Source of the DNA: Nemertoderma westbladi
Lineage: Eukaryota; Animalia; Xenacoelomorpha
Direction: 5' to 3'
NCBI GenBank assembly: GCA_032718475.1
Contig: JAUCBJ010006629.1
Coordinates: 71,242 to 135,241, forward strand
Length of the DNA stretch: 64,000 nt
Shown one piece after another: positions 23,785 through 57,083 of the stretch. Every line of letters begins with the position of its first letter. Position 1 is the first letter of the stretch. The notes under the pieces are model-generated. The model was not told where the DNA came from, did not search any database, and saw nothing but the letters and a program-made list of their open reading frames with translations. The translations under genes and the position numbers were made by a program.

Positions 23785-25949
23785 TGATAAACAACCGCGA
23801 CCTCTATACTAACAGCAGAACTGTTGAACAGACCAATACCCGTTAATATCCTTCTGCCAACCTAATAAGTTCTCGTCTAACCAATAAGACACGAAGACTG
23901 CTCTACTGTTAAGTAAAGGGGCTCAGGAGCGTGATATTACTAAATTGTAAGGGTTGCTAAATACAAACCGCTACTTACCGTTAGATGGCGCTAATCTGCC
24001 GTCCGCTAATATATTTTACTAAATTTACACAACTCCTGCAAAATCGCTTGTTCCTTTATCTACCGATTGCTCGATAGAGAGCTAACTGTTCGAATCTATG
24101 AGCCACGCAGGAATAACCAAAACAATAAACCCGAGTCGGCTCCCTAAGCTTACTTAAGACGAGTGCGAGAGGCCTTGCACTCAGAGTATTCTTACGCCTA
24201 ATTTTATCACTATTAAAGCACGCTATTACCTACGTCTTTCTAATCGCGAATACTGGAGGTTCCCTAACGTAATGTGTGAATGCGAGAATATTTAAAATAT
24301 CAAAATGGTACAGTATCTGTTTCTACATGGATAATACCACTCCGAGTCTAAAACTGCCCGCGACTGGCTTTAGGCCAGCAAAATTACTAGCGTATCGTGC
24401 GTACCGAATAGTGCGTTCTAGCTGATTGCCCGCTAATGCAAATAACCGCTCAGCGTGAATAGTTTACAGTACACTAATTATTACCTTAGCTACTCTCCGC
24501 TATGCTGCGTACTAATTCTTAATTTTTTAGTAATTAATTACAGTCACAAATATTTAACAGCGTACTAATTACTAAGAGTTCCAGAATACGTAATTCTAAT
24601 TTATCACGCAACAGGTTTCGCTAGTAATAGCCTAAATTGCCGTATTACTTTGACCTAATCAATAACTAATTATTGTAACTAAGAAATAGAAATCAATCAA
24701 AGGAAAAAGAGCGCCTATCTAAGCATTCGTAATCTTAGGCACACTTCAATAACACACCAATCAGCGTTAGAAATCACAGTTTACAATTGTGCAATTCACT
24801 ACTCGTACTCCACACTCAACGTTGTAATACGCGCAGGCCTCTCCCGGGTACATCTAGGATTCCTAACTAACCCAATTCCTGCCCCCCTAATACTAAATAG
24901 AGACAAAACCTGGATCATCAGCCCCCTAGATACTGTACCGGCGATCGGTCTGCGTGCCGCAGTGCAAGATACCCGCCCGCAATGGTGACCCTGGCCAGCG
25001 TTGCCCGCTTTGAATCCTCCACTCTCTCCTAGTCGCTCAACCCCCCGATGCGCCCACCGCCCACTGGCACCTTAGCCCTCCATGATGCTAATAGCTACCG
25101 TAGCGGCGCATTCAAATCACAAAGTCTGACAGTCTCAGGAATCCCTTGGGATTATTGCGCAGAAAAGAATCACATAGAACCATCAATCAAAGGTAGAAAT
25201 CATAGTTCGATTGTAATTTGCAGTAATCGAAGGAATTATTGAGAAACACAAGCAAAGTAATCGCACTAGCAAATCATTCAAGAAATTAATCAAAATTAGC
25301 AAATTGCAGAAAATACGATATCCTAATACAAAATTAGAGACAGCTCAGCAAGTAAATTGTAACAGGGGTGTGTCATGTGATAAGGCATGAACATATGAAC
25401 AAATATATGAACAACAAAAAGCCCTACCGGCACACCGCCAATTTATAGGTGATCCGGATGGGGTGATGCAATAAGGTGACTCAATCGCTCTCCCATTGGC
25501 TCTCCAGTCCATGCTAGCATTAAACCAACCTGGAAGCAGTTAATCCAATAAGGAGACCGGATTGTAGCCCTATGCCCTCAAATTATTACCATATATGGTA
25601 ATGGATCACGTCTCTGGCTGCTGAATGGCCAGGACAGCGTCCCTATATGCTAGCCCTATCAAACTAATATCAGCAAGCACAAAATCCAGGGTCCGAGTAA
25701 ACTCGCTACCCTGGAACTATCTACATATATCCTAATACAAAATTACGTAGGTAGGGCTACATACTATACAAAATGAATGGATGCAAAATATATGGGCGTT
25801 TTAACTTCCTTACCTAAATGTCACCACACTGCGCCTTATCTAAATAATTATACTGCACAACGGACTAATATTACGTACAGTATAACGGACTAATACTGCA
25901 TACTGCATAATGGACTAATACTGTGGATACAGCGCCATATACCGTAACA
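23785..25949 (-). repeat. 3' LTR (2165 bp), preceded on the sense strand by a short purine tract GGAGCGG
   Basis: Direct repeat of 41707-43835. Confidence 0.97.
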
Positions 25950-26385
25950 CCGCTCCAAGGGAAATCATATAATGTTTCCCTCCAATTGTAGAAGAGTATA
26001 AGGTGATGTATACAAAACAAAATAAATTTCTTCCAACCAATCTAAATAACATAATAATTCTACTATTTACAAATATTGCCATAGATATTGCATAATGAAT
26101 TACATACAAATTAAATTTACAAAATATTGTTTCTCGTTCATTCTTACTACATAATGATTACTACATACAAAATCAAATATAAAAATTTTGCTAGGGCAAG
26201 TGAAAGGAGTAAGCCAAACCCGCAGGTTTGTCTCCCCAATCACTTCCTTCGCCTCTTTCATAATATAAATTCAAATAACTCAACTAGTGTATACGAGTCT
26301 AGTCGAAAATTTTCAAATGCTACAATATACATCAGAGCGACGATGATGTATATATCTAGAGTCTGTCGCCCTGTGCCATAATGTA

Positions 26386-29300
26386 TTATCGACCCGCTCC
26401 TGGGTTCTTTGGGCTCGCTCCTCTCTTTCGTCCCCTTCCCAGATACACTAATCTACCTCTAGTCGACTCCGTTGACGGCGTCCGTGAGGCGTCACTCCCC
26501 GGAACCGGCGACGACGTTCCCTGAGCCCCGACAGATTCTCGGCTCGAACTTCTCCCTCGGCCTCGTCCCAATTGTCGCGCTCCCGTGGTCGCTTCCGCCA
26601 ACTCTTCCTTCTGCAGTTGCACACGCGCTTTCTCAGACGCCCCCTGCGCCTTGCGCTGCAACCGTTGAGCTTCTATAATGGAGTGGTAGTGGTCGTCCTT
26701 GACTTGACGCTTGTCTTGGACCCCTCCTCCTGGTTCCTTCCGCGAGCCTTGAGCTCCAGCGGTCGTCGCTGTGGTCGCTGCGATCCTTTGTTCCTGTATC
26801 CTCTCGGCGGTCAATGAACCCACTGGCACATGAGTCAACAAGAATTCGTTGCGGTATTGTATAGCCGCCATCCTCCAATCACCTCGCGCGCGTACCACTT
26901 TTCTAGTCTCCGTAAATACACCCTTCGTGATGCGATCGCAAATAGCAACGAAGTTCCATGTGTACTTATTGTCCATGTTCAATTGTCTGAAGTATTCTCG
27001 GACTACGATAACTCCAGTGTTCTGTGGAAGGTCTTGAGCAGTTAGGATGAGCTCCTGATATTGTGGTAGCGATTGAAGATATGGCTCGTACGCAACATGC
27101 GATGGGTCTACCGCCCAAAACCCATATCCCGCTTTAAATGGTAACCAACGCATCTGCGCTTGAATATGGTAATCCGCCACACTCTCCCACTTATCTAACA
27201 TCTCCCGAAGTAGGTTAGCGCTATGGTTTTGAAAGGAATCATCTCGCAGCTGACATCTCGCGCTACGGTGTCCTTTTACTCCACAATATCCACATTGAGA
27301 AATGAAGACGGTGCACGTGTGAAACGAATGGTCGGTCTCATTGCACCAACGACAGACCTTATGCGCCGCCTCTATTACCGCGTCGCACGACTTTAGATTG
27401 TGCCTTGTGCTGCCGCACAATTTGCACCTACGCGCTTGTGGAAACCAGGCCCTCTCGTATATGAGGTCTCCAATCGGTTTCGCACTTCCTTCCTTCCCAA
27501 TGTCTAATACGATGTCGTCCTCTCCGGTCAACGGTTGTCGATCCGGAACAAAGTAAACATCCTCGCCCTTGTCCTCTATCTCCAATATTTCCTCCCGCGT
27601 TCGTTTCGGATATGTCTTCTCCACCGGAAGATCTACTCCGAACACCTCTACTAACGTTTCCGGCCAGCCCTCCTTAACAGGTCTATCAGCCTCCGAGTGG
27701 AAGGGAGTACCAAACCCGCGGGTTTGATTCCCGAACCACTTCTCCAAAGCTTCTGGCGTCGGATATTCCATCGACGGTCGGTCTCCCAAATCTCCGATGT
27801 TCTGTCGATATACTCCTTCGAATATCGCTAATCCTCTCCTCACCATCGACGTATTCTCTAACGATTGGTTGAAGAACGGGGTTAAGAAACGCTTCATCAC
27901 GTCGGATTGGATTCCCCCTTTCGAGCGAACGTATTGATCTCCTCCGAATACCAATGGATGACGCTTCAAAACTCGCGCAACGATATCCGCTAATAAACAA
28001 GTCACCGTGTTCGACTCAAGCACCAAATAATATTGTAGCGACGCACGGGGTGGCGCGCAAATGTTCCAATACACTAACGCTTGCCGCTTGAAGTGGGATT
28101 TGAACTCCGCTCCCGGTGGCGTGTTGTATTCGCCATACGCCTCCTCGTACTTCTTTTGCGTCTTCAACTTAAAGTCCCAATTATACAACAAGTGTGCTAT
28201 AAAGCCCATACCAGTCTTGGCAGAGTTGGGATACTCCCTATAAATTCCAATATCCTGTGCCCATAGCAACAATAGCTTGGTGTCGACAAACGGTCTCGGC
28301 AATCTATCTTCCAGATCAGTCATGGCGTTGAAGTCGCTCTCCAAATCGCTCTGGACTCCCGATCCCACCTTGACGTAATCTTGGTTGAGAATAGCCTCTC
28401 TAACCTTCTTTGGTAACATCCTGGCGTCGATACGCTCCGCTCCGTGCATACCTCCTCGCCTGCATACCTCCAAAATCTGTTCCCTAGGATCCTTCCCTTT
28501 CCGATATTGTGTCGTTATGATGGGCTCCGGTCTCTCTCGATCCGCCCTCACACGCATAAACACATGAGTCACACCATCGGCCGCACGAATTTGAATACAC
28601 TTGCTGGTCAAACATTCCTGATGGGACCCTCCTTCATTGTCGTAGAACATCACTCTCCAATCTTGCAGTGATTCCTCCGTTTTCCTCCACTGACGCTGAA
28701 TCTCATCTGATGGGGTCCACATGCGCTCGATCGCCTTGTGGTCATCATATCGGGTATAAGAACCCTTCCTCCTCAGCCACGTCTGGTCTACTTCCTCGTC
28801 ATCTGGGAATGTAGCCACCGCGACCCATACCTTGATGTACTTATCCAACCATCCGAATAGCTTACTCTCCTTCCCCGGAGCTCCAATCTTGTCCAAAGTG
28901 TCGTAATCTGTGATCTGCATTGGGACATCACGCAAGAACTTCGCGCATAAAACTTCCCGTAGACAGTCAACGTTCCAATGGTCCGCCATTCTTACCATCG
29001 GCAAGAATCGTATCGCTTCTCGCGACTCCGGATGATCTACTAATATCGCAGGTTCGGTGCCGTCGGAATAATACACCGGTCCGGGTTGAGATACGACCTG
29101 TGGAACAAATCCGGTCACTCTCCTCGTCTCCTCTTGATGTCTATCCGCGGTCTTATTATACTCCGCTATCCTGTTCTCAAATAACTCTTTCGCCTTCGCC
29201 GCTCGCTCCTCCTGCCGCAACGCGTCTATGTCGTCCTGATGCTCAGGCGTGAGGCTTCTCACTCGGTGAGGTGAAGTAAACGTAGTCCAGGGACTCGAGA

Positions 29301-30093
29301 GCTCCAAACCCGCGGGTTTGGTACCCGAGTCCCGCGCCGCTTCGCGCCGCGCCTCTAGATCCTTATAGGCTCGGTACAGCGAAATGGCCGCTGCCGTCTC
29401 TATCAAACTGGGTGTCGAACAGGGTTTAATCTCCGTATACGGATCTAATGTCGTAACGGTCGGCGTAATGGGTCTCGGAGGTCGCTTTCCGCTGAAGTCG
29501 ATACTGATCATCGGGTTGCTCATCGGGTAACCTCCCTCGTTGTATCTAAGGAATTGGTGAGCTGGACATCGCGTTAATATCGGTTCCGGATGTTGCTCGT
29601 CTAATCGGTCGGGAATCGCCACGTCCTGTTTATTCATGCATTCACCACACTTGTAGAAGAGCTTGTATACGCTGAAGACTTTCGGCGTCTCCTGATCCTC
29701 GCCTCGAGTCCTCCGATACAGGTGCATTCCGTCGAACTGGTCTCGGACTGCAGGTAGAGGCTCCTCGTGTCGTAAATACATATTCATATGGTATAGTCGT
29801 GCGATTTCCTCGTCCGGATCTGCGCTAATGTCGCACACGTCCAAAGCAAAGTCGTAGGGATACCGCGTGCGATACTCTCTCCGCAAGACTTCCATCCGGT
29901 CCCCCAACGCTCTCATTCTTTCTCTCCGTAATTCTTTATCATAACTTGGTTTATACTTCCCGTTCAGCTCCATCACGGACCGCCCATGGTAGTAAACGTT
30001 AGAGTCTTTACATCCTGGTCGCGCGAATGGTAGCTCCGCCTCCTCTCTGGCAGTAAATCCTCTGCGCGGTTGCGCTCTAATATCCCTCTCCAT
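26386..30093 (-). CDS. BEL ORF3 (1235 aa): DEDDy/WRN-EXD-like 3'-5' exonuclease domain plus three CCHC zinc knuckles
   Basis: Exonuclease motifs MFYDNEG, CIQIR, LPKKVREAILNQDYVKVGSGVQSD, FVDTK, GMGFIAHLL, YWN..LQYYLVLES. Knuckles CKLCGSTRHNLKSC, CRWCNETDHSFHTC, CGYCGVKGHRSARC. Confidence 0.8.
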   Translation of the reverse strand: MERDIRAQPRRGFTAREEAELPFARPGCKDSNVYYHGRSVMELNGKYKPSYDKELRRERMRALGDRMEVLRREYRTRYPYDFALDVCDISADPDEEIARLYHMNMYLRHEEPLPAVRDQFDGMHLYRRTRGEDQETPKVFSVYKLFYKCGECMNKQDVAIPDRLDEQHPEPILTRCPAHQFLRYNEGGYPMSNPMISIDFSGKRPPRPITPTVTTLDPYTEIKPCSTPSLIETAAAISLYRAYKDLEARREAARDSGTKPAGLELSSPWTTFTSPHRVRSLTPEHQDDIDALRQEERAAKAKELFENRIAEYNKTADRHQEETRRVTGFVPQVVSQPGPVYYSDGTEPAILVDHPESREAIRFLPMVRMADHWNVDCLREVLCAKFLRDVPMQITDYDTLDKIGAPGKESKLFGWLDKYIKVWVAVATFPDDEEVDQTWLRRKGSYTRYDDHKAIERMWTPSDEIQRQWRKTEESLQDWRVMFYDNEGGSHQECLTSKCIQIRAADGVTHVFMRVRADRERPEPIITTQYRKGKDPREQILEVCRRGGMHGAERIDARMLPKKVREAILNQDYVKVGSGVQSDLESDFNAMTDLEDRLPRPFVDTKLLLLWAQDIGIYREYPNSAKTGMGFIAHLLYNWDFKLKTQKKYEEAYGEYNTPPGAEFKSHFKRQALVYWNICAPPRASLQYYLVLESNTVTCLLADIVARVLKRHPLVFGGDQYVRSKGGIQSDVMKRFLTPFFNQSLENTSMVRRGLAIFEGVYRQNIGDLGDRPSMEYPTPEALEKWFGNQTRGFGTPFHSEADRPVKEGWPETLVEVFGVDLPVEKTYPKRTREEILEIEDKGEDVYFVPDRQPLTGEDDIVLDIGKEGSAKPIGDLIYERAWFPQARRCKLCGSTRHNLKSCDAVIEAAHKVCRWCNETDHSFHTCTVFISQCGYCGVKGHRSARCQLRDDSFQNHSANLLREMLDKWESVADYHIQAQMRWLPFKAGYGFWAVDPSHVAYEPYLQSLPQYQELILTAQDLPQNTGVIVVREYFRQLNMDNKYTWNFVAICDRITKGVFTETRKVVRARGDWRMAAIQYRNEFLLTHVPVGSLTAERIQEQRIAATTATTAGAQGSRKEPGGGVQDKRQVKDDHYHSIIEAQRLQRKAQGASEKARVQLQKEELAEATTGARQLGRGRGRSSSRESVGAQGTSSPVPGSDASRTPSTESTRGRLVYLGRGRKRGASPKNPGAGR

Positions 30094-30849: not shown

Positions 30850-33800
30850 CTAACTCTGTTTTGAGGCAGGAGACAAATTATAATCTCCCGTCTCGATACG
30901 TGTCTCCTCTAATAACACGATATCTTGGACCGGTCGGTCCAAGGTGTGCAAACCATTAGTTTTACACTTTTTTGGGTGCGGACACTTGCACCTAATTTTC
31001 ACAGTGACTGTGCGCACTATGTTTTGCACGTCTGGGTGTGTGTGCAAGATCACTCCTGTCTCCCAATACTTTCTCTTGACAATGGGTTCGGTTATCAACA
31101 CGTAATCTCCCCTTTGGAGACTCCGAACCGTTTTGTACCACTTTGTTCTGGTGGATATGGTGGGAAGATAGTATTCCCGCCAATATTCCCAGAATGTGTA
31201 CGCCACTAACTGTGTTACTTTCCAGCTCTTACGACTATATAGGTCGGCACTAATGGGTTCTGATGCCGGCACAAGAAATGCTGGACTCTGCATTAGCAAA
31301 TGATTCGGCGTTAATGCAACACCGTCTGGCAACATAGCTATCGGCCTCGAGTTTAGGGTATGCTCGATTTCAATGAAAGCTGTAACCAGTTCGTCATCGG
31401 TAAGTTGTTTGTTCACAGGCAACGTCTTAGCAATGGCCTGCTTTACAGAGCGAACTAAACGCTCCCAACTTCCTCCTCTCCAAGGACTTTCTGGAGTATT
31501 GAATCTCCATTCTACTCGTTGCGGCAAAAGTGCTGCAGAAATTTCCTTATTCTGTGCTGCTTTATGAGCCGCGTTCAACTCGCTATTCCCTCCGACAAAG
31601 TTTGTACCCTTGTCAGAGTAGAACGCCTTTACTAGTCCTCTCCTGGCCATAAATCTCTTCAAGGCCAGGAGCAGAGATTTGGTCGACATGTCTGCCACAC
31701 GCTCGATATGTATGGCTCTACTCGCCATACATGTCAGTAGCAGACCCCATCGCTTGTGGGTCAGCCGTCCACTCTTTGCTTCAATCGGACCAAAACAGTC
31801 CACCCCTGTATTCGTAAAGGGTGGGTCATATGCCTGCACTCTCGCTTCCGGGAGTTCAGCCATCTCCTGTTCCAATACTCTGGCGTTCACTCTCTTGCAA
31901 ACCAGACAGGCGTCGTACATAGTGCCTACTGCCCTGCTTGGCTGCAATAGAATGAATCGCTGTCTCGCTGCCGACAGACAGTGTAACCTTCCCGCGTGAT
32001 GCAACCTCTTATGTATATCCCATAGAATCGCTCTTTGCAATTCTATTGGGTGACTAGGGATTATCACTGGGAACCTAAACTGTGAGTTTATGTCGACAGT
32101 CTGGATTCTCGATCTATGACAAATTAAACCCTTATGGATTAATGGACTCCATTTTCTAAGGGGTTTATAGAGAACTGGTCGATGAGCCGATAATAGATGG
32201 AATTCTTTCGGGAAGGCACACATTTGATAATGCTTCAAATGCTTTAATTCCGCTTGATCAATCTCATCCTCTGTCAGAGGTCGTTTCAATTTCCGAATTC
32301 GCTCACTATTGGTGCTCAATGGTTCTCTCAAATGTTTCGAATGTTTTAAACAAAGGTACGAAACGTATCGGCTTAACCACGCAGTTCTTTTACAAATTGT
32401 CAGCCAAGAGGCAGACGAATTTAGTAATTTGTCATAAATACTGCATGACTCTAATGCCAGCGACGGTTGTCCTCTAACTAATGGAAGTTTCGAATCCAAA
32501 CCCGCAGGTTTGGAAACCAAAGGCTCCATTGTGTCGGTCATTTTCTGTCCGTCACTTACCAATTGTGACTGTCGTCTAGTCTGTAAGGGTGGTTTTACGT
32601 CGTAACTTACCCTTCCTGACCTAGTAGTCACGTAAGTCTGTTGGTCTGACAGGTCTCCGGGCCGCTCCAATAACTCTTCAGGCCGCTCCAATGACTCTTC
32701 AGGCCGCTCCAATGACTTAAGTTTGGCTTTAGACTTCGACTTAGAGACTTTCTCCACTTTGACTTCTGCATCTTCAGGCATCGGATTGGTCACTATCTTT
32801 AGTCGCTCTGGCCAATGTTCCTGTGTCCTCGTTAGAAAATCAGGTCCATGCAACCAAAACTCCTGCGACTCTTCCCGACAGAATTCCGCCGGCATTGCAC
32901 CTCTCGAAGTTATGTCGGCCGGGTTCAACACTCCCGGACAATGTCTCCATTGTTCCTTCGTCGAAAAATCAACGATCTGAGCGCGTCTATTGGCCACAAA
33001 TGTCTTTAGTGCATTATTGTCGGCCGCAATGTATACTAACACCAAGGATGCGTCCGTCCAATAGAATAAGGTCAATGTCGTGTCTAACTCCTCAGTTATT
33101 TGCTTACTTACCTCGACCGAAACTACAGCCGCCTGTAACTCTGCACGAGGGACAGTCATATATTTGACCGGCATTGTCTTTGATCTAGAAGTCACAAAGG
33201 CCGTCTCAAATTTGTCCTGACTTACCTCTCGGCGAAGGTAGGCTACCATACCAAAGCCGGTGTCACTTGCGTCACTGAATAAATGCAGTTCTAAATCAGC
33301 TGGAAATACCAGCTGATTCGGAAAGTAGGAACGGGGTACATCTATATTGTTCAATAGATGCAACTCGGCTTCCCACTCCCTCCACTGCTTTGCATGTATA
33401 GGAGATATTGGTTCGTCCCACTCTAAGTCGGACAACCAAATTTTCCTCATGCACGCTCGTGCCTGTAATATAACCGGACTGATAAAGTTCATCGGGTCAA
33501 ATAGTCTACTTAATGTCGATAAGCAAATTCTCTTTGTCAAAACTTTGTCTGGGCTACTGGGCTCAAATCTAACTCTTACCTGGAACTTATCTGAGTTCGG
33601 GTTCCAAGCGAGTCCCAGTACTCGCGCCATGGGGATTGGTTCTACCCCCAATTCTATGTCTCCGCTCCCGCGATCTTTTACCGGGAACGATTCTAATAGG
33701 GCCTCCGAATTAGTAGTGAACTTGGTCAGAGGAAATCCCCCTGTAGCCAAGCACTCTTGCAGGCCGTGAGCCACTTCTATGGCTTGTTCCGCTGTGTCCT

Positions 33801-36800
33801 TGGACACCAATCCGTCGTCCATATAGAAGTTTCTCAAGATGGACTCGATTACTTCTACTGGGTACTTACCAATCTGGGCTGTTGCCGTTTTCTTTAGAAC
33901 GAACAGCGTGCCATTCGGACTATCGCGGGCGCCAAATATCCTAACGTACATTTGGTATGTAACCACTGGGCCGGATAAGTCTTCATTCTCAAACCAGAGA
34001 AATCGAAGGCTATCCTGGTCTGCCTTACAGGCTCTTACCTGGTGGAACATCGCCTCGATGTCACAAGTAAATGCGAATCGCCGCTGTCTAAAACGCAACA
34101 GTATTCCAATCAAATAGTTATTCAGGTTGGGACCATCCATCAACTCTGAATTCAGGGACATACCTCTATAGACTGCTGCGCAGTCGTTGACTACTCGGAC
34201 TTTGTCTGGCTTGTCAGGGTGAGTCACATAGTGGTGTGGAAGGTAATAAGTCTGGTCTGTCACTAAGTCAGGGTCCTCTACCTTCCCAGCAAATCCCTTG
34301 GCGAAATAGTTGTTGATCTGGGCGCAATACTTCTCCCTAATGTCCGGATTCTTCAACAACCGAGCCCTTACTCCGTTTAATCTTTTCAAGGCTAAGCTGT
34401 AGTTGTTCTCCAACTTAGGTGGTTGTCGACGCCACAACATTCCAACTTCAAAATGTCCAGTCGGTAGCAGACGTATGGTGTCTTCCATCATCTCCAGCGA
34501 CCGTTTCTCATCAGTAGACATGGCTAGGTCATATCCACCGGGTTCCATTGCGTCCCTATCCAGCCATTCGACGGTTCTGGCTCCTGTCTCGAGGTCCTGG
34601 CGTATCAATTCCTTCTGTAATTCCTCCTCACTGTATTGGAAAATGTCTAGGTCTCGATATTTAGCCACTTGACCCTCCACTATGTCTGTATAAGTCAAAA
34701 CGTTAGTCAGATAAGTAGCGTGGGCCGCTGAACCAGACCCACGGGTCTGATAACAGTAGTCCTCGGGTTCACTATCTGTCCGGTCGTTGTGAAGCGGTTC
34801 CGACAACCTAACATTATCGGGAATCAACTCCTCGTCCGACTCGCTAAAGTCACTATAGTGGTCAATACAGGTTCTCCTAAACTCGTCTATGTCTGGTGGT
34901 TCTACTAACGGTGGTTGAGTTATAGGCTGTAATTCATCGTATCTGTCCATTGGCTTGTCGCCACCTGTAAACTCATAAGACATGGGTACTCGTGTATACC
35001 AACCTAGTATGGTCCTATGGGCATGTGGTCCATTGACATGCGGCTCAGCTGGTCTCGTTTCCCATATCTGGTGTGCGATCAGCTGTTCTGCACCAATTAA
35101 CATAGAAACATTCCTATAACCTACCTGGTGTCTGGGTATCCTGAGCTTGTCAAAATACTCCTGTGCTATGGGACTCATCGGCGGCACCTTACCTAACTGC
35201 CTGCCGAATCCCTTCATAGCTAGACACTTAAATCCGTCCAATGGCAAAGCTTTCCGTTCTTGTCGAGTGTGTTGGTCTCTCGGAAGTAGGGAATCTAGTT
35301 CCACCGAAATTCTGTGTCCCTTGAGGTCTCCTACCCCATGCATAGACTTCAACTCTATTTGGATCTCCTCGGCGTCCTGGAAGCTAGAAACAGCTCTCGC
35401 CACTTCCTCGTCGATATAAGATAATGTGGACGCAGTGTCCAACATCAAATATATTCGCTTCGATCCCTTATCGCCAGTGAGTTTCACCGGAATCACGCTA
35501 AATATTTCCGACGTGGCCGATGATAAATACGTCCGCGCGCTGGTCGATGAACTATCCGCGGTGAAACCTTGGCAGGTCACTTCTCTCGCGCTCGACTCGC
35601 CATCCTCGTCCGACGAACCTGGTTGGTAACCATCGTCCTGGATGCCAGTGTACGTATTCCTCCTTATCGATACGGGTTCTTTGCTCCCCTTCCTTTGAGG
35701 ATTTCGCTGTAAGTAACGGTCCGTTGGGGTGTGGAAATCCGCATGTAGCAACTTGTGATGTAGTCTGCCGCATTCCATGCATCCGTCCTTGCTGTTCGGG
35801 CACTGCCGCCGTATATGACCTGGCGCAAGACATGCCCAACAGGTGTCCAACGTCCGCACTTGAACTCTTCTCTGTTCCGAATTTAATTCTTTGAACCGTC
35901 TGCAACTATCTAACTTATGGTCGTCAGATCTTACCTCCTTTAGTAAACAGTATTGGCAACCTACAAATCCATCCGGCAACTCCTGTTGCTTTAACCTAGG
36001 TCTATCTAACCGCTCACCTGACCATACTCGCGAGTCTGATCTAAAGGCTGGGGTACTCGAATTATATCTGTCTACTGAGTTAAATGTCACAGTGGTCCTA
36101 TCATCGTCAAAACTTACCATAGACTTACCGGTAACAGGTTTAGACTCCCTCATATTCTCTTCTGAGAAGTTTGATTTCATCTCTGCTACTGCGTCTGTGG
36201 CTATCATGTCATGAATATGCTGAAGTGTCAACACCTTACCTTGGCCCTCCAACTTATTCTCTAATTTGCGCCATTTCTGTCTGTAACGCATGTTTAAACG
36301 TCTTATTACGCTTTTCAAAACTTCGGCGTGATCACCATGATGAGGTAGATTCACCGTCCTCAAGATGTCCAATGCGTTCGAAATAGCGTTCGCTAAGTTC
36401 AACAGCTCTAACGGAGTTGTAATCCTTCCGCCCTTACCCAAGTCTTCTACTATCGACTGCGCCATCTTGGTTTTATTCCCGTAGATGTCACTAAGCGTCT
36501 TCATCGCTAACTCAAATGCTCTTTCATTGCCGACGAAATTATCAGCAATGGCTCTAGGTTCTCGATGGAGCATCTGAAGCAAATAGTTGAACTTTTCGTT
36601 GGGAGTAAAGGTGCTGTTGGTTAGCTGCTCGTCGACATAGGTTTTGAAGGTCCTCCAATGTTTATGGTTACCCATAAACTTCTGGGGTTGCTGCGTCGGC
36701 AGTCCTTGCCTAGCAGCAAACTTACCTATGTCCCTAAGGGTTGCGTCGTTCCGGGTTAACAAATGGTTTAGTTCCGCAGGGTTGTTAAGTCTGGTCCTTT

Positions 36801-37269
36801 CCCGGTGGTTCCAACTTACCTGCTCCGCGTCCGTCCTTCTTTCCTTATAGTTTCGGGACTTCTGACGTCTCATTTCTTCCTCTTCATCGCTTGACTCAGT
36901 GTCAGTCCTTAGCGCTCGCGATGGTTTGCGCGCCGAGGCCCTGCGCTTGCGTCCTTCTGGGCTCCTCTCTGATGACTCCGAGGCGCACCCATGAGGCGGA
37001 CGCTGTCCCACCACCCCTGGGGCCAGTCTGACTGATGTTATTATCAGACCGGGCCGGAGGGTGGCCCGATGCTTCCCGGGCTCTGTTTTCGGTCCCCCGA
37101 TCACACCGGCACAGCTCGTCGAACGTGTAGCCAGATGGGCGGCTACTGTCAACTTACTGTGGCCTGACTGTACATTGAGCCAACTCAGAGAGTCAACCGG
37201 CGGGTGGACCAGTCGATAGCGATCAAGCACCAAGGTCGCCCTTGGGCCTAACCGACGGTCTTGTCCCAA
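30850..37269 (-). CDS. pol: BEL/Pao Gag(core)-Pol polyprotein; true start uncertain
   Basis: DUF1759-like KFMGNHKHWRTF..EKFNYL, three Cys-His boxes, protease LDTAS, RT YMDD, RNase H HLFSDAS, integrase GVDCFGP/SDKGTNF/WERLVRSVK and C-terminal FWEYWREYYLP. Confidence 0.95.
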   Translation of the reverse strand: MGQDRRLGPRATLVLDRYRLVHPPVDSLSWLNVQSGHSKLTVAAHLATRSTSCAGVIGGPKTEPGKHRATLRPGLIITSVRLAPGVVGQRPPHGCASESSERSPEGRKRRASARKPSRALRTDTESSDEEEEMRRQKSRNYKERRTDAEQVSWNHRERTRLNNPAELNHLLTRNDATLRDIGKFAARQGLPTQQPQKFMGNHKHWRTFKTYVDEQLTNSTFTPNEKFNYLLQMLHREPRAIADNFVGNERAFELAMKTLSDIYGNKTKMAQSIVEDLGKGGRITTPLELLNLANAISNALDILRTVNLPHHGDHAEVLKSVIRRLNMRYRQKWRKLENKLEGQGKVLTLQHIHDMIATDAVAEMKSNFSEENMRESKPVTGKSMVSFDDDRTTVTFNSVDRYNSSTPAFRSDSRVWSGERLDRPRLKQQELPDGFVGCQYCLLKEVRSDDHKLDSCRRFKELNSEQRRVQVRTLDTCWACLAPGHIRRQCPNSKDGCMECGRLHHKLLHADFHTPTDRYLQRNPQRKGSKEPVSIRRNTYTGIQDDGYQPGSSDEDGESSAREVTCQGFTADSSSTSARTYLSSATSEIFSVIPVKLTGDKGSKRIYLMLDTASTLSYIDEEVARAVSSFQDAEEIQIELKSMHGVGDLKGHRISVELDSLLPRDQHTRQERKALPLDGFKCLAMKGFGRQLGKVPPMSPIAQEYFDKLRIPRHQVGYRNVSMLIGAEQLIAHQIWETRPAEPHVNGPHAHRTILGWYTRVPMSYEFTGGDKPMDRYDELQPITQPPLVEPPDIDEFRRTCIDHYSDFSESDEELIPDNVRLSEPLHNDRTDSEPEDYCYQTRGSGSAAHATYLTNVLTYTDIVEGQVAKYRDLDIFQYSEEELQKELIRQDLETGARTVEWLDRDAMEPGGYDLAMSTDEKRSLEMMEDTIRLLPTGHFEVGMLWRRQPPKLENNYSLALKRLNGVRARLLKNPDIREKYCAQINNYFAKGFAGKVEDPDLVTDQTYYLPHHYVTHPDKPDKVRVVNDCAAVYRGMSLNSELMDGPNLNNYLIGILLRFRQRRFAFTCDIEAMFHQVRACKADQDSLRFLWFENEDLSGPVVTYQMYVRIFGARDSPNGTLFVLKKTATAQIGKYPVEVIESILRNFYMDDGLVSKDTAEQAIEVAHGLQECLATGGFPLTKFTTNSEALLESFPVKDRGSGDIELGVEPIPMARVLGLAWNPNSDKFQVRVRFEPSSPDKVLTKRICLSTLSRLFDPMNFISPVILQARACMRKIWLSDLEWDEPISPIHAKQWREWEAELHLLNNIDVPRSYFPNQLVFPADLELHLFSDASDTGFGMVAYLRREVSQDKFETAFVTSRSKTMPVKYMTVPRAELQAAVVSVEVSKQITEELDTTLTLFYWTDASLVLVYIAADNNALKTFVANRRAQIVDFSTKEQWRHCPGVLNPADITSRGAMPAEFCREESQEFWLHGPDFLTRTQEHWPERLKIVTNPMPEDAEVKVEKVSKSKSKAKLKSLERPEESLERPEELLERPGDLSDQQTYVTTRSGRVSYDVKPPLQTRRQSQLVSDGQKMTDTMEPLVSKPAGLDSKLPLVRGQPSLALESCSIYDKLLNSSASWLTICKRTAWLSRYVSYLCLKHSKHLREPLSTNSERIRKLKRPLTEDEIDQAELKHLKHYQMCAFPKEFHLLSAHRPVLYKPLRKWSPLIHKGLICHRSRIQTVDINSQFRFPVIIPSHPIELQRAILWDIHKRLHHAGRLHCLSAARQRFILLQPSRAVGTMYDACLVCKRVNARVLEQEMAELPEARVQAYDPPFTNTGVDCFGPIEAKSGRLTHKRWGLLLTCMASRAIHIERVADMSTKSLLLALKRFMARRGLVKAFYSDKGTNFVGGNSELNAAHKAAQNKEISAALLPQRVEWRFNTPESPWRGGSWERLVRSVKQAIAKTLPVNKQLTDDELVTAFIEIEHTLNSRPIAMLPDGVALTPNHLLMQSPAFLVPASEPISADLYSRKSWKVTQLVAYTFWEYWREYYLPTISTRTKWYKTVRSLQRGDYVLITEPIVKRKYWETGVILHTHPDVQNIVRTVTVKIRCKCPHPKKCKTNGLHTLDRPVQDIVLLEETRIETGDYNLSPASKQS

Positions 37270-38123
37270 GTGGGCTTGTGCTACCCAACATGGAATATTG
37301 ACACGTTTTCACCCGCCTCGCCGGCAGTATTGAGGGGAAGTAAGTTCCACAAACAATACTGACTATCTCGAAAGCTAGGAACAAGTAACCACTTACCAGT
37401 CCTATACACGTGTACTCAACAGATGTTCACAATATCAAGTACACTACGGTAAACACAAAATCGGACACATACCATGCACACACAGAGGACATAATCGTGA
37501 AAGACAAAATCGGTGTCAAAATCGGGAGGGACTAGTTGTATCGACTTGAGAGAGAATGAGAAAGTCGAGAGTACTTTATTTTACCGACAAGGTAAAATAA
37601 CTTGTGTGCACAAAGTATGCTGGGGCGCAGTAAAGTATGGTCCTACTAATACCAGCGGCGTCTTGTCCAACCGGCAAGGTTTCCCATACTCACTCGCAGT
37701 GGCCACACATACAATCACGTGTACTCACATACCCACAGCAACAGAAAGCTCATCTCAGACCTAAACACACTCCAAAAACCAATCAGCTGAACATGGAGAC
37801 AATAACATATAGTATCAAAAAAAACGGAACAGCTGACGGTCAATGGCACACATCCAAGCCCCAAAGCTAACTGCCACTGCTCGCCCACATACAAATCACA
37901 GTTCATACCACATGAACCACAAATCACGCCATGCCACCACCCCTACTGTGTACAGGACTGGCAGTACGGCAACAGGCCGACTAGACGGTACCACGGCACC
38001 ATGTCGATTCATGGTTCGCTAGACACGAGGGCCTTCAGTATCTCCCTTGCACTTAGAGGAAGCATTTAACTTTAACGTGTCCCCAGACCCTCACGAGTCC
38101 GCCGCCGCCTGTTTTGGGCACAC

Positions 38124-40511
38124 TTATAGAGACCTCACCTCCTTAGGCACCCAAGCTTCCTCAATAAATCTTTCTGCCGAATTTTCGAAATTGGGATTAT
38201 GGATATTCGGGACAGGCGTCCTTACCTGAGGTCTATGTGGTATAGTCTCCTCCGATATGCGTACTCGTTGACTAGGCTGGACTTTATCTAACTCAGGCCT
38301 GCTAGGATTAGAATTACTTCTTACCTGGGCTGCTTCCTTTAACCGTAGGTTGCTAAGCATGTCCGTTATAGGTTGGATGTGCGGCGATATAGCTTGCGCT
38401 AAACTAGCACTTAACTCGTCCCTCGTAATAAATTCCTGGCTAGGGTTCTGTTGTATAGTCGGCTCTATCTGAGTAATCCGCTGTCTCTCATATGATCCCT
38501 CTTCCGGTTTAACCCGGAAGTTCTCCGTCGAACTGGGTCGGCGCTCCGTCCGCGTATTCCAAACCCGCGGGTTCGGTTCGCCAAGTACTCGTCCTGTCGG
38601 AGTTTCTTCTCTAAATTCTCCGTTCGCTCGTTCGGTGTATAGTGGTGCGGTGTTCCGATGACGTAGATCCTGGGCGATAGGTGAAGCACTAATACCAACT
38701 GGCGTGCGATATGTAGAGAACGGTTTAACGATCCGTGTACTCGTAATAGCTGGACCGGGTATAGGAATTCTGGTCGTCATTGACTCGCGTATAGTCGGAG
38801 TTCTCGCTTCCTGTTCGGCCTTCTGCAGTGCGAACAGTTCTCGCAACTCTGTCCCTACACTCGCCCCACATTCTTCGATCATTCGCATCCCCTTCTCGGC
38901 GATTTCATTCGCCTTCCTAGTCCGTTCTTCGCTCTCTAAACTTAATCTCGCACTTTCCAACTGCGCCAGTTTACGCTCTTCTTCTTCCCTCGCTCGTCTC
39001 GCTGCGCTCTCTTCTTCCACTCGCGCCTTTTCTTCATACAATGCGCGTCTTCTTTTCTCGATCTCGAGTTCGCGTTCCTTGCGTCCGCGTTCGAGTTGAA
39101 GCTCGCGCTCCTTCTGTTCACGATCGAGTTTCTTGCGCTCGCGTTCGGCTTGGAGTTCGCGTTTCTTCGCTTCCTGTTCGCGTTCGAGTTGGAGTTCGCG
39201 TTTCTTCGCTTCCCGTTCGCATTCAAGTTGGAGTTCGCGTTTCTTCGCTTCCCGTTCGCATTCGAGTTGGAGTTCGCGTTCTCTCTGTTCGCGTTCGAGT
39301 TCCTCGCGCTCGCGCTCGGCTTGGAGTTCACGTTCCCTTTGCTCGCGTTCCGCTCGCTCGCGCTTACTTATCTCTTCCAACTCTCGTAACTCTGCGTCCA
39401 ACTTACGTGTGCGCTCCCGTTCCCGCTCGGCTTCCTTCCGTGCTTCCTGTGCACGCAAAACTTCCGCCTGCTGTTCGTCTAGTCGGCGTCTTCTCTCCTC
39501 CGCCGAGTTGTGAGAAACAAGGGATCTAGCACATATTACCTTACCTCGCGCGTGACTAACCTGGGAATCGCCGCTGTCTCTAGATGCGTCGTCGGGTGGA
39601 GTCAACGTCCTCTGTTGAATGTTCTCCGTCGTCGGTAGCACCTGGCCTGGTACCACCACTCCATTCTGCATCAGCCAGCTAGTAACTTCCCTCTGATAAC
39701 GGCGCTCTTCCTTATCTTGGATCTCTTCTCGCTCCACTAACTCTCTCAACTCTGCGTCACTCACTTGAGTCGCCTGCGTTTGTGATGCCCATAGCAGCCA
39801 GTTCTCCGTCCTAACTCGTCGGAATCGCTCCGATAACTCGCGGTGCTCTAACAAGGCTGCTAAAACCCTGTCGTAAATCCTCGTTGCTACGTCGCTCGAC
39901 TGAGACTCTACTGCCTTCTTCGCTAGGACTGCAAGCTCCTCTGTCTGCTTGAATAACGCTGAGTTATATCCTCTTCTAATCTCTACTAACTCTACCCTCC
40001 CGATGTTCGCTGGGTCAGCTAACATCTTCCTTACCTTGTCCGCCGTCCGAGTTATATGTCCGGCATGCGCGCGAAGTTTCTTCTTTATCGCGATATCAAG
40101 TTCTCTCTCGCTTACCTGACTCACACTCGGTGGACTTGAAGGATTATTTCGGGAACTACGGGTACTCCTAACAGCCGTCGGGACCACGGCACTTACCATA
40201 CCCACAGGTCTGGAAACCGGGCTCCGGGCTCTCGCTTCTGCTACACTACCCTCCCTATCACTCACCTCTGTCCGGGTTGCTGTACAATCCTTCCTTACAG
40301 TAGCGGTAGGGGATCCTAATACTATTACCTGAGGCTGCTGTTCTTCCTCACTAGTCACTGTCTCGTCCTCCTGTTCACTTACGTCAGCGTCGCTCGCTGC
40401 GTCGTCATAGTCGGCATTGTCATCAACAGTAATATTTACGCTATCGTCAGTCGGCGGTCCAGCCGCCGTCTCATAGCTGTCCTCTAGTGCCTCTTTGTCT
40501 GAGACACTCAT
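38124..40511 (-). CDS. BEL ORF1 (795 aa): acidic N-terminus and long E/R/K coiled coil, Gag N-terminal-like
   Basis: ATG-initiated open frame downstream of the 5' LTR; tandem RELQLE(C/R)EREAKK repeats. Confidence 0.8.
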   Translation of the reverse strand: MSVSDKEALEDSYETAAGPPTDDSVNITVDDNADYDDAASDADVSEQEDETVTSEEEQQPQVIVLGSPTATVRKDCTATRTEVSDREGSVAEARARSPVSRPVGMVSAVVPTAVRSTRSSRNNPSSPPSVSQVSERELDIAIKKKLRAHAGHITRTADKVRKMLADPANIGRVELVEIRRGYNSALFKQTEELAVLAKKAVESQSSDVATRIYDRVLAALLEHRELSERFRRVRTENWLLWASQTQATQVSDAELRELVEREEIQDKEERRYQREVTSWLMQNGVVVPGQVLPTTENIQQRTLTPPDDASRDSGDSQVSHARGKVICARSLVSHNSAEERRRRLDEQQAEVLRAQEARKEAERERERTRKLDAELRELEEISKRERAEREQRERELQAEREREELEREQRERELQLECEREAKKRELQLECEREAKKRELQLEREQEAKKRELQAERERKKLDREQKERELQLERGRKERELEIEKRRRALYEEKARVEEESAARRAREEEERKLAQLESARLSLESEERTRKANEIAEKGMRMIEECGASVGTELRELFALQKAEQEARTPTIRESMTTRIPIPGPAITSTRIVKPFSTYRTPVGISASPIAQDLRHRNTAPLYTERANGEFREETPTGRVLGEPNPRVWNTRTERRPSSTENFRVKPEEGSYERQRITQIEPTIQQNPSQEFITRDELSASLAQAISPHIQPITDMLSNLRLKEAAQVRSNSNPSRPELDKVQPSQRVRISEETIPHRPQVRTPVPNIHNPNFENSAERFIEEAWVPKEVRSL

Positions 40512-41695
40512 AGTCTAAATAATATTTGCCTTCCGGCAAAAATCTCGCAAAAGTTCGAGATATAATTATAATTTAACCGAAATACGGTCAAATTATTTGT
40601 CAAATAATCAGTTGGTCCAAATGTCAAATAAATTCGCAATGCAATATTGTGAATTTAATGGGGTATATAGTTATAGCAAATACTAACACAATATTTAAAC
40701 AAAAAATATTATTATATAGCTACTATATAGTATTAAATACCGGTATAGCACAAAATAACTTTGAATCTAATACAAAATATTCAAAATAAACTTGCCACCC
40801 GAATATTTCTAATTTTATATATATAGCTCCAATCAACGTAATTTTAATTTCAAATATTATATGTATCCACTAGCGCGTGGCTACATCTTCGGGTTGCGAC
40901 TCTCTCTAACTCTCTCTCTAACTTGAGCGATTCAAAAAACCATGGCCGGCTAAACCTAAATATCCTAACTAATAAATTGAGTTCAGCTTCGCAGTTAAAC
41001 AACCGGTAATTTTTTACTGCTTCCACAAACACAGTGGTGCCAACAGAACAACTAACCTTGTTTGCTGTGAGATTCCACGTCCGCGTCCAAAGATTCAGGC
41101 CCTTCGCTGATTGCAAACCGAACCCGCAGACCCACACGAACCCCAAACTCAGAAGTTCCGTCTTGCCATGTATCTCCAGATGGTATAAAATAACTAAGCG
41201 GTTACCTAACATACCGGTACAAAACTCTAGAATTTTACAAAATAATTTTGACCGAAAACTGAATTCTCGCAAACCTAGCTAAAATTTTCAAAAAACTTAC
41301 TAATTACTGTTTGCCCTAAGGCCTAAGGAACTGCTGTATTCGCAATTAGCAAAACGCACTACCGTACATTCACTGTATGCAGCACAGTAAGTAAAACAGT
41401 ACACCAACCTAACAGCCTAATGATACTGTGTGTGGTACGGCAAACAAATGTCCTTCTACCGTCCGCAGTAACAACAATCAGCCTAATGTACTACTGTACT
41501 ATTGTACGCAGCCAGTGAATACAGTAATCTAAACTAACAGCCTAATAGAATAAATATACTCAATGTCTTACTGTACGCTAGCCTATAGCCTACAGCAGAC
41601 GATCACGTGCTCTAACTTATTACTTAATACTGTGATACTACTAATCAGCCTAAGAATACTCTATTGACTGTACGCTACAGCCTACAGCCAATAAA

Positions 41696-41706
41696 GCGCG
41701 TATTAC
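41696..41706 (-). other. Primer-binding-site position: GTAATACGCGC, non-tRNA and complementary to the LTR-internal 11-mer at 42746-42756
   Basis: Directly abuts the terminal CA of the 5' LTR; no TGG; exact 11-bp inverted repeat. Confidence 0.6.
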
Positions 41707-43835
41707 TGATAAACAACCGCGACCTCTATACTAACAGCAGAACTGTTGAACAGACCAATACCCGTTAATATCCTTCTGCCAACCTAATAAGTTCTCGTCT
41801 AACCAATAAGACACGAAGACTGCTCTACTGTTAAGTAAAGGGGCTCAGGAGCGTGATATTACTAAATTGTAAGGGTTGCTAAATACAAACCGCTACTTAC
41901 CGTTAGATGGCGCTAATCTGCCGTCCGCTAATATATTTTACTAAATTTACACAACTCCTGCAAAATCGCTTGTTCCTTTCTCTACCGATTGCTCGATAGA
42001 GAGCTAACTGTTCGAATCTATGAGCCACGCAGGAATAACCAAAACAATAAACCCGAGTCGGCTCCCTAAGCTTACTTAAGACGAGTGCGAGAGGCCTTGC
42101 ACTCAGAGTATTCTTACGCCTAATTTTATCACTATTAAAGCACGCTATTACCTACGTCTTTCTAATCGCGAATACTGGAGGTTCCCTAACGTAATGTGTG
42201 AATGCGAGAATATTTAAAATATCAAAATGGTACAGTATCTGTTTCTACGTGGATAATACCACTCCGAGTCTAAAACTGCCCGCGACTGGCTTTAGGCCAG
42301 CAAAATTACTAGCGTATCGTGCGTACCGAATAGTGCGTTCTAGCTGATTGCCCGCTAATGCAAATAACCGCTCAGCGTGAATAGTTTACAGTACACTAAT
42401 TATTACCTTAGCTACTCTCCGCTATGCTGCGTACTAATTCTTAATTTTTTACTAATTAATTACAGTCACAAATATTTAACAGCGTACTAATTACTAAGAG
42501 TTCCAGAATACGTAATTCTAATTTATCACGCAACAGGTTTCGCTAGTAATAGCCTAAATTGCCGTATTACTTTGACCTAATCAATAACTAATTATTGTAA
42601 CTAAGAAATAGAAATCAATCAAAGGAAAAAGAGCGCCTATCTAAGCATTCGTAATCTTAGGCACACTTCAATAACACACCAATCAGCGTTAGAAATCACA
42701 GTTTACAATTGTGCAATTCACTACTCGTACTCCACACTCAACGTTGTAATACGCGCAGGCCTCTCCCGGGTACATCTAGGATTCCTAACTAACCCAATTC
42801 CTGCCCCCCTAATACTAAATAGAGACAAAACCTGGATCATCAGCCCCCTAGATACTGTACCGGCGATCGGTCTGCGTGCCGCAGTGCAAGATACCCGCCC
42901 GCAACGGTGACCCTGGCCAGCGTTGCCCGCTTTGAATCCTCCGCTCTCTCCTAGTCGCTCAACCCCCCGATGCGCCCACCGCCCACTGGCACCTTAGCCC
43001 TCCATGATGCTAATAGCTACCGTAGCGGCGCATGCAAATCACAAAGTCTGACAGTCTCAGGAATCCCTTGGGATTATTGCGCAGAAAAGAATCACATAGA
43101 ACCATCAATCAAAGGTAGAAATCATAGTTCGATTGTAATTTGCAGTAATCGAAGGAATTATTGAGAAACACAAGCAAAGTAATCGCACTAGCAAATTATT
43201 CCAAGAAATTAATCAAAATTAGCAAATTGCAGAAAATACGATATCCTAATACAAAATTAGAGACAGCTCAGCAAGTAAATTGTAACAGGGGTGTGTCATG
43301 TGATAAGGCATGAACATATGAACAAATATATGAACAACAAAAAGCCCTACCGGCACACCGCCAATTTATAGGTGATCCGGATGGGGTGATGCAATAAGGT
43401 GACTCAATCGCTCTCCCATTGGCTCTCCAGTCCATGCTAGCATTAAACCAACCTGGAAGCAGTTAATCCAATAAGGAGACCGGATTGTAGCCCTATGCCC
43501 TCAAATTATTACCATATATGGTAATGGATCACGTCTCTGGCTGCTGAATGGCCAGGACAGCGTCCCTATATGCTAGCCCTATCAAACTAATATCAGCAAG
43601 CACAAAATCCAGGGTCCGAGTAAACTCGCTACCCTGGAACTATCTACATATATCCTAATACAAAATTACGTAGGTAGGGCTACATACTATACAAAATGAA
43701 TGGATGCAAAATATATGGGCGTTTTAACTTCCTTACCTAAATGTCACCACACTGCGCCTTATAATACTACATGGACTAATACTGCATACTGCATAATGGA
43801 CTAATACTGTGGATACAGCGCCATATACCGTAACA
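41707..43835 (-). repeat. 5' LTR (2129 bp)
   Basis: Sense TGTTACGG...TTTATCA; about 7 substitutions and 2 indels versus the 3' LTR. Confidence 0.97.
43330..43422 (-). promoter_or_regulatory. Candidate LTR promoter
   Basis: Sense CCAAT (43422-43418), AP-1-like TGAGTCA (43406-43400) and TATAAA (43370-43365). Confidence 0.45.
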
Positions 43836-43840
43836 CCAAT

Positions 43841-45064
43841 CTTGATACTGAAGGGGATATTGGGTTTTTCTTAATTTGCGATTTGAAATATCCCAAAGAT
43901 ATTCATGATCGTACATTAGAACTACCCTTAGCCCCAGAACATTTAAGTGTAAATGAGACAATGCTTTCACCATATATGAGGGAACAATATAACAATGTTT
44001 GTAAACAAAGAGGTACTAATAGCAAGTATAAGATGTGTACCCCAAAACTTATGTTGACACAATTCGATAAAGAATTCTATCATGTAAATTTGAAACTGTT
44101 AAAATTTTATATAAAACAAGGTTTAATTGTTACTAAGCTCCATAAATTATATTCTTTCCATCAAGACTTTGTATTTGAACCCTATATAGATTTTAATATT
44201 AATCAAAGGCGTTTAGCAAAAACGTATATTGAAACAGCTGTTGTGAAGCTTTTGAATAATTCGTTATTTGGAAAAACGATTGAAAAAATAAGAGACCGAT
44301 GCAACTTTCGTATCGCTAATAGTAAAGAGAAGTGCGATTTGTTGGTCAAACGTATAAATCACGAAAATTTCATGATTTATAACGATTCCTTATCGGGACA
44401 TTTATTAGTGAAAGACTCTGTAACTCTCGATAAGCCGGTCTATGTAGGTAGTACTGTCTTGGACTTGGCTAAATTGGATATGTATGAGTTGTATTACAAT
44501 AAATTGCTACCTATTGAGAAAGAATTAAACTGCCGAATTTAAATTGTAGCATCAGATACGGACTCTTTAATAGGTTGTTACTATAATACATCGCAGAATA
44601 ATTTTTTAAAAGCCTTAATTAAAAATAATATTCTAGATACATCCAATTACCCCAAGGATCACCCTCTCTACAGCGATAAAAATAAATCCAGGCTCTATTA
44701 CTGCAAAGACGAACTAGCCTCACGTGAAATTAAACAAGCGGTATTTTTAAGACCAAAATTATATTCAATTTTAGAATGGAATGAATCCAATATACGACGG
44801 GCGAAAGGAATAACAAGAGCTGTCGTGGATAAAAATATTTGCCACGAAGATTATTTGAGGGCATATTACGATAACGAAGAAATTTCTAAGGGGATGCACC
44901 AATTTCAGAGTAAATTACATAAGGTGTATACAGTAGCACGTGATAAGTTTGCTCTCAGCGCATTTGATGATAAACTTTATTGGGTTAATAAAAATCATTC
45001 GCTTCCCTGGGGTCACTATCAAACAAAGGTTGAAAAAGAAAAACAATATACCTATTTATCGTGA
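43841..45064 (+). pseudogene. polB: pPolB C-terminal part with in-frame TAA at 44540-44542
   Basis: Joins the N-part in frame (YLTN-LDTEGDIGFFLICDLKYP). Motifs KLLNNSLFGK, RI*IVASDTDS, DTSNYP, KDE, RPKLY, AKGI, LSAFDDK. Confidence 0.95.
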
Positions 45065-45072
45065 GCCAAACA

Positions 45073-55287: not shown

Positions 55288-55457
55288 CTTCCAAATTTTA
55301 AAGTAAATTGAAAATAATTACCACAATACACAACAACAACAACAACAACAAACAAAACTGTTATACTGTATATACAAATACTACTACAATTTTCGATTAT
55401 TTAAAAATAGTAAAATTTTATATATAATCATAAAATATTTATAATATAGGGGAAAAG

Positions 55458-57039: not shown

Positions 57040-57083
57040 TACAGTATCGCGGGTAGTTGTTTATATTAACAGTATACAGTATC
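57040..57083. repeat. TSD and final unit of the 35-bp minisatellite
   Basis: TACAGT ATCGCGGGTAGTTGTTTATATTAACAGTATACAGTATC. Confidence 0.95.

Follow-up and report, generated by a model that had tools for sequence, protein, structure and literature searches.

A predicted internal self-primer in an animal BEL/Pao retrotransposon and candidate splice-built primers among its relatives

LTR retrotransposons are described as using three primer types, of which self-priming is placed in Tf1/sushi, Tcn1 and TAR (accessible text of PMC6317226). In Tf1, RNase H cuts the RNA after base 11 (accessible text of PMC7175516), and priming of this type is described in the available parts of PMC7175516, PMC4600332 and 10.1101/2022.12.06.519325. 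The Belpaoviridae profile gives an 18-nt tRNA-Arg or tRNA-Gly primer-binding site (PBS), LTRs of 0.2–1.2 kb and genomes of 4.2–10 kb (PMC8742986). As far as the accessible parts of these sources go, self-priming has so far been reported only in some Gypsy and Copia lineages, and BEL/Pao elements are catalogued as tRNA-primed. We found no report of self-priming or splice-made primers in BEL/Pao in a literature search whose scope left out most subscription journals and the Repbase notes. The available parts of PMC554778, PMC3118150, PMC6238403 and PMC8556966 yielded no mention of a PBS, and those of PMC8220671, PMC3601003 and PMC3286476 no information on BEL priming.

We analysed a stretch of 64,000 nt from the xenacoelomorph Nemertoderma westbladi (contig JAUCBJ010006629.1; hereafter, the window), which carries an element of 20,051 nt (about 20 kb) on the minus strand (43835-23785). 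Its 5' LTR (41707..43835, minus strand, 2129 nt, TG..CA) was delimited by self-BLAST and alignment. The 3' LTR (23785..25949, minus strand, 2165 nt) is about 37 nt longer near its start and otherwise 99.6% identical, the identity of the pair being measured over 2056 nt. The target-site duplication ATTGG lies upstream at 43836..43840 and downstream at 23780..23784 (both minus strand; self-BLAST and reading of the flanks). Because the TG..CA termini, ATTGG on both flanks and the 99.6% repeat identity define the LTR ends, these are independent of the pairing discussed below. The 5' LTR end has further support in two contigs of run X4, which depart from the alignment at 41706 and 41707 into unlike flanks. 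We regard the element as young. Many variant copies of its family are present in contigs of runs X1 and X3, and two scans of viral contigs found no relatives.

The open Gag-Pol frame (30850..37308, minus strand; 2152 aa stop to stop, first Met at 36873) matches DUF1759 (PF03564), Pao peptidase A17 (PF05380) and DUF5641 (PF18701) above the Pfam cut-off and an integrase zinc finger just below it, and the RT motif YMDD can be read from its translation. We retrieved 633 Gag-Pol homologues, and the 120 listed all carry PF05380. Among the matches listed, the best are BEL/Pao polyproteins with 36–42% identity, and the named ones come from cnidarians, molluscs, echinoderms, a barnacle and a fish. By its predicted Pol, the element is a member of BEL/Pao, an identity already given in the earlier note on this DNA. 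It has the BEL-type Gag-Pol domains, arranged as capsid, protease, RT, RNase H and integrase, and the TG..CA LTRs, the target duplication and the purine tract of this group; the candidate polypurine tract, GGAGCGG, abuts the 3' LTR (25950..25956, minus strand). Two further genes flank Gag-Pol. ORF0 (38124..40511, minus strand) encodes 795 aa, charged and coiled-coil-like, with no Pfam family and no BLAST match among the 120 BEL polyproteins. About 1.25 kb of non-coding sequence separates it from the first Gag-Pol Met, and it may be a detached N-terminus of Gag. ORF3 (26386..30093, minus strand) is intact, encodes 1235 aa with three CCHC knuckles (residues 890-947), matches no family and found no homologue among 7987 candidates. 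It occupies the usual place of env, a role that we rejected because it lacks a hydrophobic membrane segment, and is an unexplained extra gene.

The element is inserted inside a Polinton/Maverick-like element (17668-57087). The latter has inverted terminal repeats at 18084-18579 and at 56536-57047, a tandem array of 35-nt units at its left end and an rve integrase (53313-52195). The BEL insertion interrupts a reading frame (parts 21145-23787 and about 43841-44542) with a DFNSLYS motif, which we take to be that of a family-B polymerase; the first part (21145-23787) gave no Pfam or PDB match. Other cargo of the Polinton-like element comprises a TBP-like ORF (45034-45618, plus strand; PF00352 above cut-off), a RING-finger-like ORF (54835-55317, minus strand) and a weak P-loop ORF (53941-54618, minus strand). 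Elsewhere, the window contains an uninterrupted frame of 1152 aa (57690-61148, plus strand) with a Roc-COR-CARD organization, whose nearest relatives (32–36%) are found among the multi-domain ROCO proteins of echinoderms, hemichordates, nemerteans and molluscs. It also contains tandem arrays with units of 42, 29 and 53 nt (4309-11460, 61893-63302 and 63819-64000, respectively). In the 42-nt array, frames stay open over more than 2000 codons.

The 5' LTR, whose final base is 41707, is followed with a 0-nt spacer by the sequence GTAATACGCGC (41696..41706, minus strand), which we propose as PBS. It is perfectly complementary to an 11-nt segment of the LTR itself, GCGCGTATTAC (42746..42756, minus strand; LTR nt 1080-1090, 1039 nt before the LTR end), the predicted self-primer, of which the 3' LTR carries a second copy (24824..24834, minus strand). 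The earlier note had drawn attention to this self-complementarity, and the two copies are indeed exact. At up to one mismatch, GTAATACGCGC and its two complements are the only three matches in the window. The duplex is exactly 11 bp, with a mismatch on either side, and one of its edges falls exactly on the LTR boundary; at other leader offsets (7 to 39), pairing never exceeds 8 nt. Dinucleotide shuffles reach an 11-nt match in 12 of 3000 cases (2129-nt LTR, PBS offsets 0–5 allowed), so the chance of about 5e-4 put forward earlier was somewhat low. Taken alone, the pairing in the window is thus suggestive. When 17 foreign PBSs were compared with the window LTR, none had a contiguous match of at least 10 nt. 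We searched for a TGG-type tRNA PBS at offsets 0–5 after the 5' LTR and found none; the 18-nt tRNA-Arg or tRNA-Gly PBS of BEL/Pao is therefore not seen here. Neither a tRNA gene in the window nor an Rfam match around the LTR was found, which led us to reject an element-encoded tRNA as primer. Among the differences listed between copies (40 of 262 and 40 of 68), none falls inside either 11-mer; X4 covers both sites partly. Two diverged contigs leave the alignment at the primer segment (42689-42755), with joints at 42689-42754 in X3 and 42709-42755 in X4, and may carry another primer or an intron.

The rest of the 5' leader (40515..41695, minus strand) contains seven copies of TAGGCT, a motif with no copy in the internal region beyond it. 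These cluster with four copies of TACAGT just after the PBS (41706-41400, minus strand), together with a strong hairpin. The predicted RNA hairpin (41658..41697, minus strand) sits at the 3' edge of the PBS and overlaps its last 2 nt. It is stable (−24.1 kcal/mol, z −4.7) and was matched by 1 of 200 shuffles. Cluster and hairpin are possible packaging or dimer signals.

We then compared the element with others of its superfamily. A scan of metagenome contigs gave 510 confirmed BEL loci, of which the best 80 were taken. We examined 23 loci with a terminal repeat and kept 18 whose LTR end is fixed by the repeat; L006 was dropped as belonging to the same family as L007, and L029, L030, L054 and L057 because their ends are unfixed. 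Excluding L045 (same family as L033) from the counts leaves 17 relatives and the window element, i.e. 18 elements. Pairing was scored when the leader start, at offset 0–5, was perfectly complementary to the element's own LTR over at least 10 nt. This occurred in 16 of the 18 elements; the corresponding numbers were 28 of 306 for swapped pairs and 12 of 360 for leader windows farther downstream. Under stricter splice rules, chosen after the data had been seen, the count remained 16/18 against 14/306 swapped pairs (8/298 when same-clade pairs are removed), 2/360 downstream leader windows and 2/18 on the wrong strand. Loss of the complementarity among relatives had been set beforehand as a refuting test; it is retained, with letters specific to each family. 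The last 10 nt of the 20 predicted primers comprise 17 distinct sequences; 18 of the 20 primers, including that of the window, end in AC and two in AT. Likewise, 18 of 20 PBSs begin with GT, including that of the window. The duplex always ends within 0–4 nt of the LTR boundary. Distant families retain the pairing, at the very edge of the LTR, with changed letters. No tested relative exceeds 42% identity to the Pol of the window element (about 40% Pol identity in the set), and this Pol sits on a long branch; hence, the relatives provide distant support. Because most testable distant relatives keep the pairing with different letters, the group is likely to self-prime.

Two of the 18 elements do not fit. 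One is L051, without a match and with an uncertain LTR end. The other, L066, carries the only clear TGG-type PBS in the set. This element (L066:235-6625) has a 171-nt LTR and groups in the tree close to self-complementary elements, so the priming mode has switched at least once; we take its PBS to be initiator-Met-like. A scan of the other 61 loci, most of which are too short for this comparison, added four families (L001, L030, L058 and L073) and recovered two known ones. Contiguous matches of 10–11 nt (L018, L034, L038, L040, L052, L058 and L073) were set aside as chance, since every CA had been tried as LTR end. A looser scan of 23 loci gave matches in seven, namely three known families, L034 (13 nt, weak donor) and the doubtful L019, L038 and L064; 16 had none. 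By eye, L007, L014, L017, L063 and L073 have a spacer of 2–4 nt between LTR and PBS and often 2–3 extra letters that separate the purine tract from the 3' LTR. Several elements with no spacer (L030, L033 and the window element were compared) have no such extra letters.

The complement is not always contiguous. In 12 of the 16 pairing elements, it appears only across a predicted GT-AG intron inside the LTR, in two pieces; the window element, L037, L070 and L075 have contiguous, intron-less primers. The search for split matches required only a GT after the first piece and an AG before the second. Yet the best split matches show nine GTAAG donors out of 12, one GTACGT and one GTTCGT, and their acceptors are pyrimidine-rich. 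L047 had a weak donor at first assignment; a GTAAGT donor gives it a 15-nt primer, which brings the GTAAG donors to 10 among 12. For comparison, the 891 GT sites of these LTRs include 25 GTAAG, and comparable donors occur in 17 of 142 null split matches. The 11 introns measured are 71–186 nt long, T-rich and lower in GC than their own LTRs. Intron signals are present in both DNA LTRs in the four elements checked. The part of the primer in the first exon spans 4–10 nt in the relatives. We also searched for the joined (spliced) junctions of 16 intron-bearing families, and found none in their own loci and two matches in unrelated ones. A split primer was rejected for the window LTR, where the best candidate reaches 8 nt, has a weak donor and does not exceed the null.

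The earlier note had called the primer Tf1-like. What holds of this is self-priming without a tRNA; the primer is probably internal to the RNA, rather than its first 11 nt, to judge from the sequences around it. Across 20 elements, pairing between the 22-nt stretch preceding the primer and the 25-nt stretch following the PBS is better than in swapped pairs (p 0.001), and this upstream helix scores in the top decile within the element's own LTR in 9 of 19 cases. In the window element itself, the upstream helix is not significant (rank 7 of 20, 34th percentile). Such co-pairing fits an internal primer. It could be a functional helix or a relic of reverse transcriptase running past the primer, and in both cases the primer would be attached to upstream RNA. 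The alternative is a strict Tf1 mode, in which transcription would start at 42756 and the 11-mer, as 5' end of the RNA, would fold back in cis on the PBS. This has in its favour the length of 11 nt and the geometry, the same as described for Tf1 (accessible text of PMC7175516), and the sharp 5' edge of the duplex. Furthermore, the sequence after the window primer can form one possible downstream helix with the leader after the PBS, at rank 1 of 20 although only at the 11th percentile within its own LTR; the other helix is lacking (rank 19 of 20). Yet Tf1-type helices downstream of the primer give no signal across the 20 elements (permutation p 0.87 and 0.92), the upstream co-pairing extends across the set, and a fold beginning at the primer gives a duplex probability near 0. 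The only TATAAA hexamer of the LTR, a candidate promoter (43365..43370, minus strand), is 614 nt upstream of the primer segment, in line with the earlier remark that the TATA box is far upstream. TATA-like boxes 124–135 nt upstream of the primer were seen in three of 18 relatives, a weak signal. In the relatives, a transcript starting at the primer would have a first exon of merely 4–10 nt, too short for a plausible capped exon. We therefore consider the strict Tf1 mode unlikely. As for the 3' side, A(A/T)TAAA occurs 13–97 nt past the primer end in 14 of 18 relatives (raw count), with a variant signal in the other four. The placement of the window 11-mer within R is putative only, as a search of the window LTR for AATAAA or ATTAAA found neither.

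RNA folding was computed for eight relatives whose 5' LTR is complete. With the intron removed and 30 nt of upstream sequence, the full duplex has a mean probability of at least 0.5 in seven of the eight, and six remain at or above 0.5 with 100 nt upstream. With the intron retained, the 3' half of the duplex pairs at 0.11 or less in all eight. In the window element, the duplex probability is near 0 in three of three whole folds (1.1–1.7 kb, folds over 1 kb being unreliable), and these models count against easy cis pairing there. It forms only in a co-fold of the two local regions, which gives 10 of the 11 pairs and a 6-bp upstream helix beyond the leader hairpin, with about −12 kcal/mol net.

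We propose that a stretch of the element's own LTR RNA primes reverse transcription from an internal position, with no tRNA-type PBS, a reading in which we have good confidence. A functional role for the complementarity between PBS and LTR is very likely, and self-priming in place of tRNA priming is strongly supported by the comparisons of sequence. The LTR RNA would anneal to the PBS, and the RNase H of the element would nick the RNA just 3' of the duplex, as in Tf1. Reverse transcriptase would then extend from the terminal C directly into the LTR end. The PBS would be recopied from the primer in each cycle, which would keep the two matched. In most relatives, the primer would exist only after splicing of the LTR intron. 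Since both DNA LTRs keep the intron, one copy in the RNA would have to be spliced, to serve as primer, and another unspliced, to serve as template. A last intron, when spliced, promotes use of the poly(A) site close to it. The poly(A) signal closely follows the acceptor here, so splicing would favour an RNA end at this place, and we lean slightly towards the 3'-LTR copy, or a short LTR-only transcript, as the spliced copy rather than the 5' one. Transcripts that undergo splicing in the 5' LTR would tend to stop at that point, leaving genomes with an unspliced 5' copy and a spliced 3' one, which would explain the persistence of the intron. Alternatively, priming could occur in cis from a spliced 5' copy, which the modelled folds indicate to be feasible. 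The window element would be an intron-less form of the internal self-primer, in which either LTR copy could pair.

Two other explanations leave the LTR RNA out of priming. A host RNA fragment, such as a tRNA half or another small RNA, might be the primer, the LTR match being chance or a relic. Priming by host tRNA-Arg or tRNA-Gly is what ICTV gives for the family (PMC8742986), half-tRNA priming is known in Copia lineages (accessible text of PMC6317226), the relative L066 has a TGG-type PBS, and a chance match of 0.4% is not negligible in a large scan. Against this, the PBS letters vary by family and track the element's own LTR, a variation that a conserved host RNA would not produce. The window PBS shares its initial GT with most of the set and has no TGG at offsets 0–5, and there is no tRNA gene or Rfam match in the window or the LTR region. 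Hence, we regard a host fragment as very improbable. Nor do we give much credence to a duplex that is real but serves dimerisation, packaging or the control of splicing or poly(A), with priming achieved otherwise. In its favour, the pairing of the relatives goes together with splice sites and a poly(A) signal close by, and the window leader has a strong hairpin and repeated motifs beside the PBS. However, the duplex always stops within 0–4 nt of the LTR boundary, the one position at which a minus-strand primer has to end, no other PBS is found there, and the conserved terminal AC suggests a processed 3' end.

We used an RT/RNase H tree of 21 classified elements, unrooted and without references of named clades; six loci with short matches were excluded from the larger tree. 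The four elements with contiguous primers need three changes on the tree, and a topology that unites them in a single clade is rejected (AU p 8e-19). L070 and L037/L075 branch from within intron-bearing groups, a position suggestive of intron loss. The branch leading to the window element has a length of 2.04; on such a long branch of an unrooted tree, intron loss and an ancestral intron-less state are both compatible and cannot be told apart. More broadly, we tentatively suggest, at a little under even chances, that a wide BEL/Pao lineage of animals has exchanged the tRNA for a primer that the host spliceosome assembles. Only a spliced LTR copy (at the 3' end of the genome or in a short LTR transcript) would prime, and the unspliced template would hand on the intron. 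L070, L037/L075 and the window element would then represent separate intron-less forms, indicating that a contiguous internal primer can serve as well.

If the proposal is true, self-priming reaches a third LTR superfamily and many animal elements, and internal and splice-made primers join the three known primer types. The first step of replication would come under the control of host splicing. These elements would presumably escape silencing by tRNA fragments, and it would be explained why PBS finders miss them. The proposal makes sharp predictions on the exact junction, the exact nick and the exact start of the strong-stop product. The window contributes an intron-less and highly diverged example with very long LTRs, while the other loci contribute the test across families.

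Among known systems, the element resembles the Belpaoviridae in its Gag-Pol with DUF1759, Pao peptidase and DUF5641, its integrase at the end, its TG..CA LTRs, 5-nt duplication and purine tract. It differs from their profile in having no tRNA PBS, LTRs of 2.1 kb, a length of 20 kb and two additional ORFs. The TAR lineage of Ty1/copia (Houba, Osr-1) is similar in that self-priming was predicted from sequence outside the Tf1 group (accessible text of PMC6317226); however, TAR elements are plant Copia, and the same text describes no intron-built primer for them. The closest likeness is with Tf1/Tf2 of Schizosaccharomyces pombe, Tf1/sushi and the Tcn1 chromoviruses (Ty3/gypsy), which, as far as the accessible descriptions go, lack a tRNA PBS and use 11 nt of their own LTR RNA complementary to a PBS adjacent to the LTR. 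The window element has such an own-LTR-complementary PBS and no tRNA site. In contrast to that group, its superfamily is BEL/Pao, with a BEL/Pao Pol in place of a chromovirus one and no Pfam chromodomain, and its primer, located 1039 nt ahead of the LTR end, is probably internal. Our set as a whole gives no signal for the two helices that flank the primer duplex in the three-duplex pretzel of Tf1 (available part of 10.1101/2022.12.06.519325), and shows extra pairing upstream of the primer instead. Most relatives need splicing to obtain their primer, a step that the accessible accounts of Tf1 do not describe. The element is thus no member of the Tf1 group, but its priming step probably proceeds in the same way as that of Tf1.
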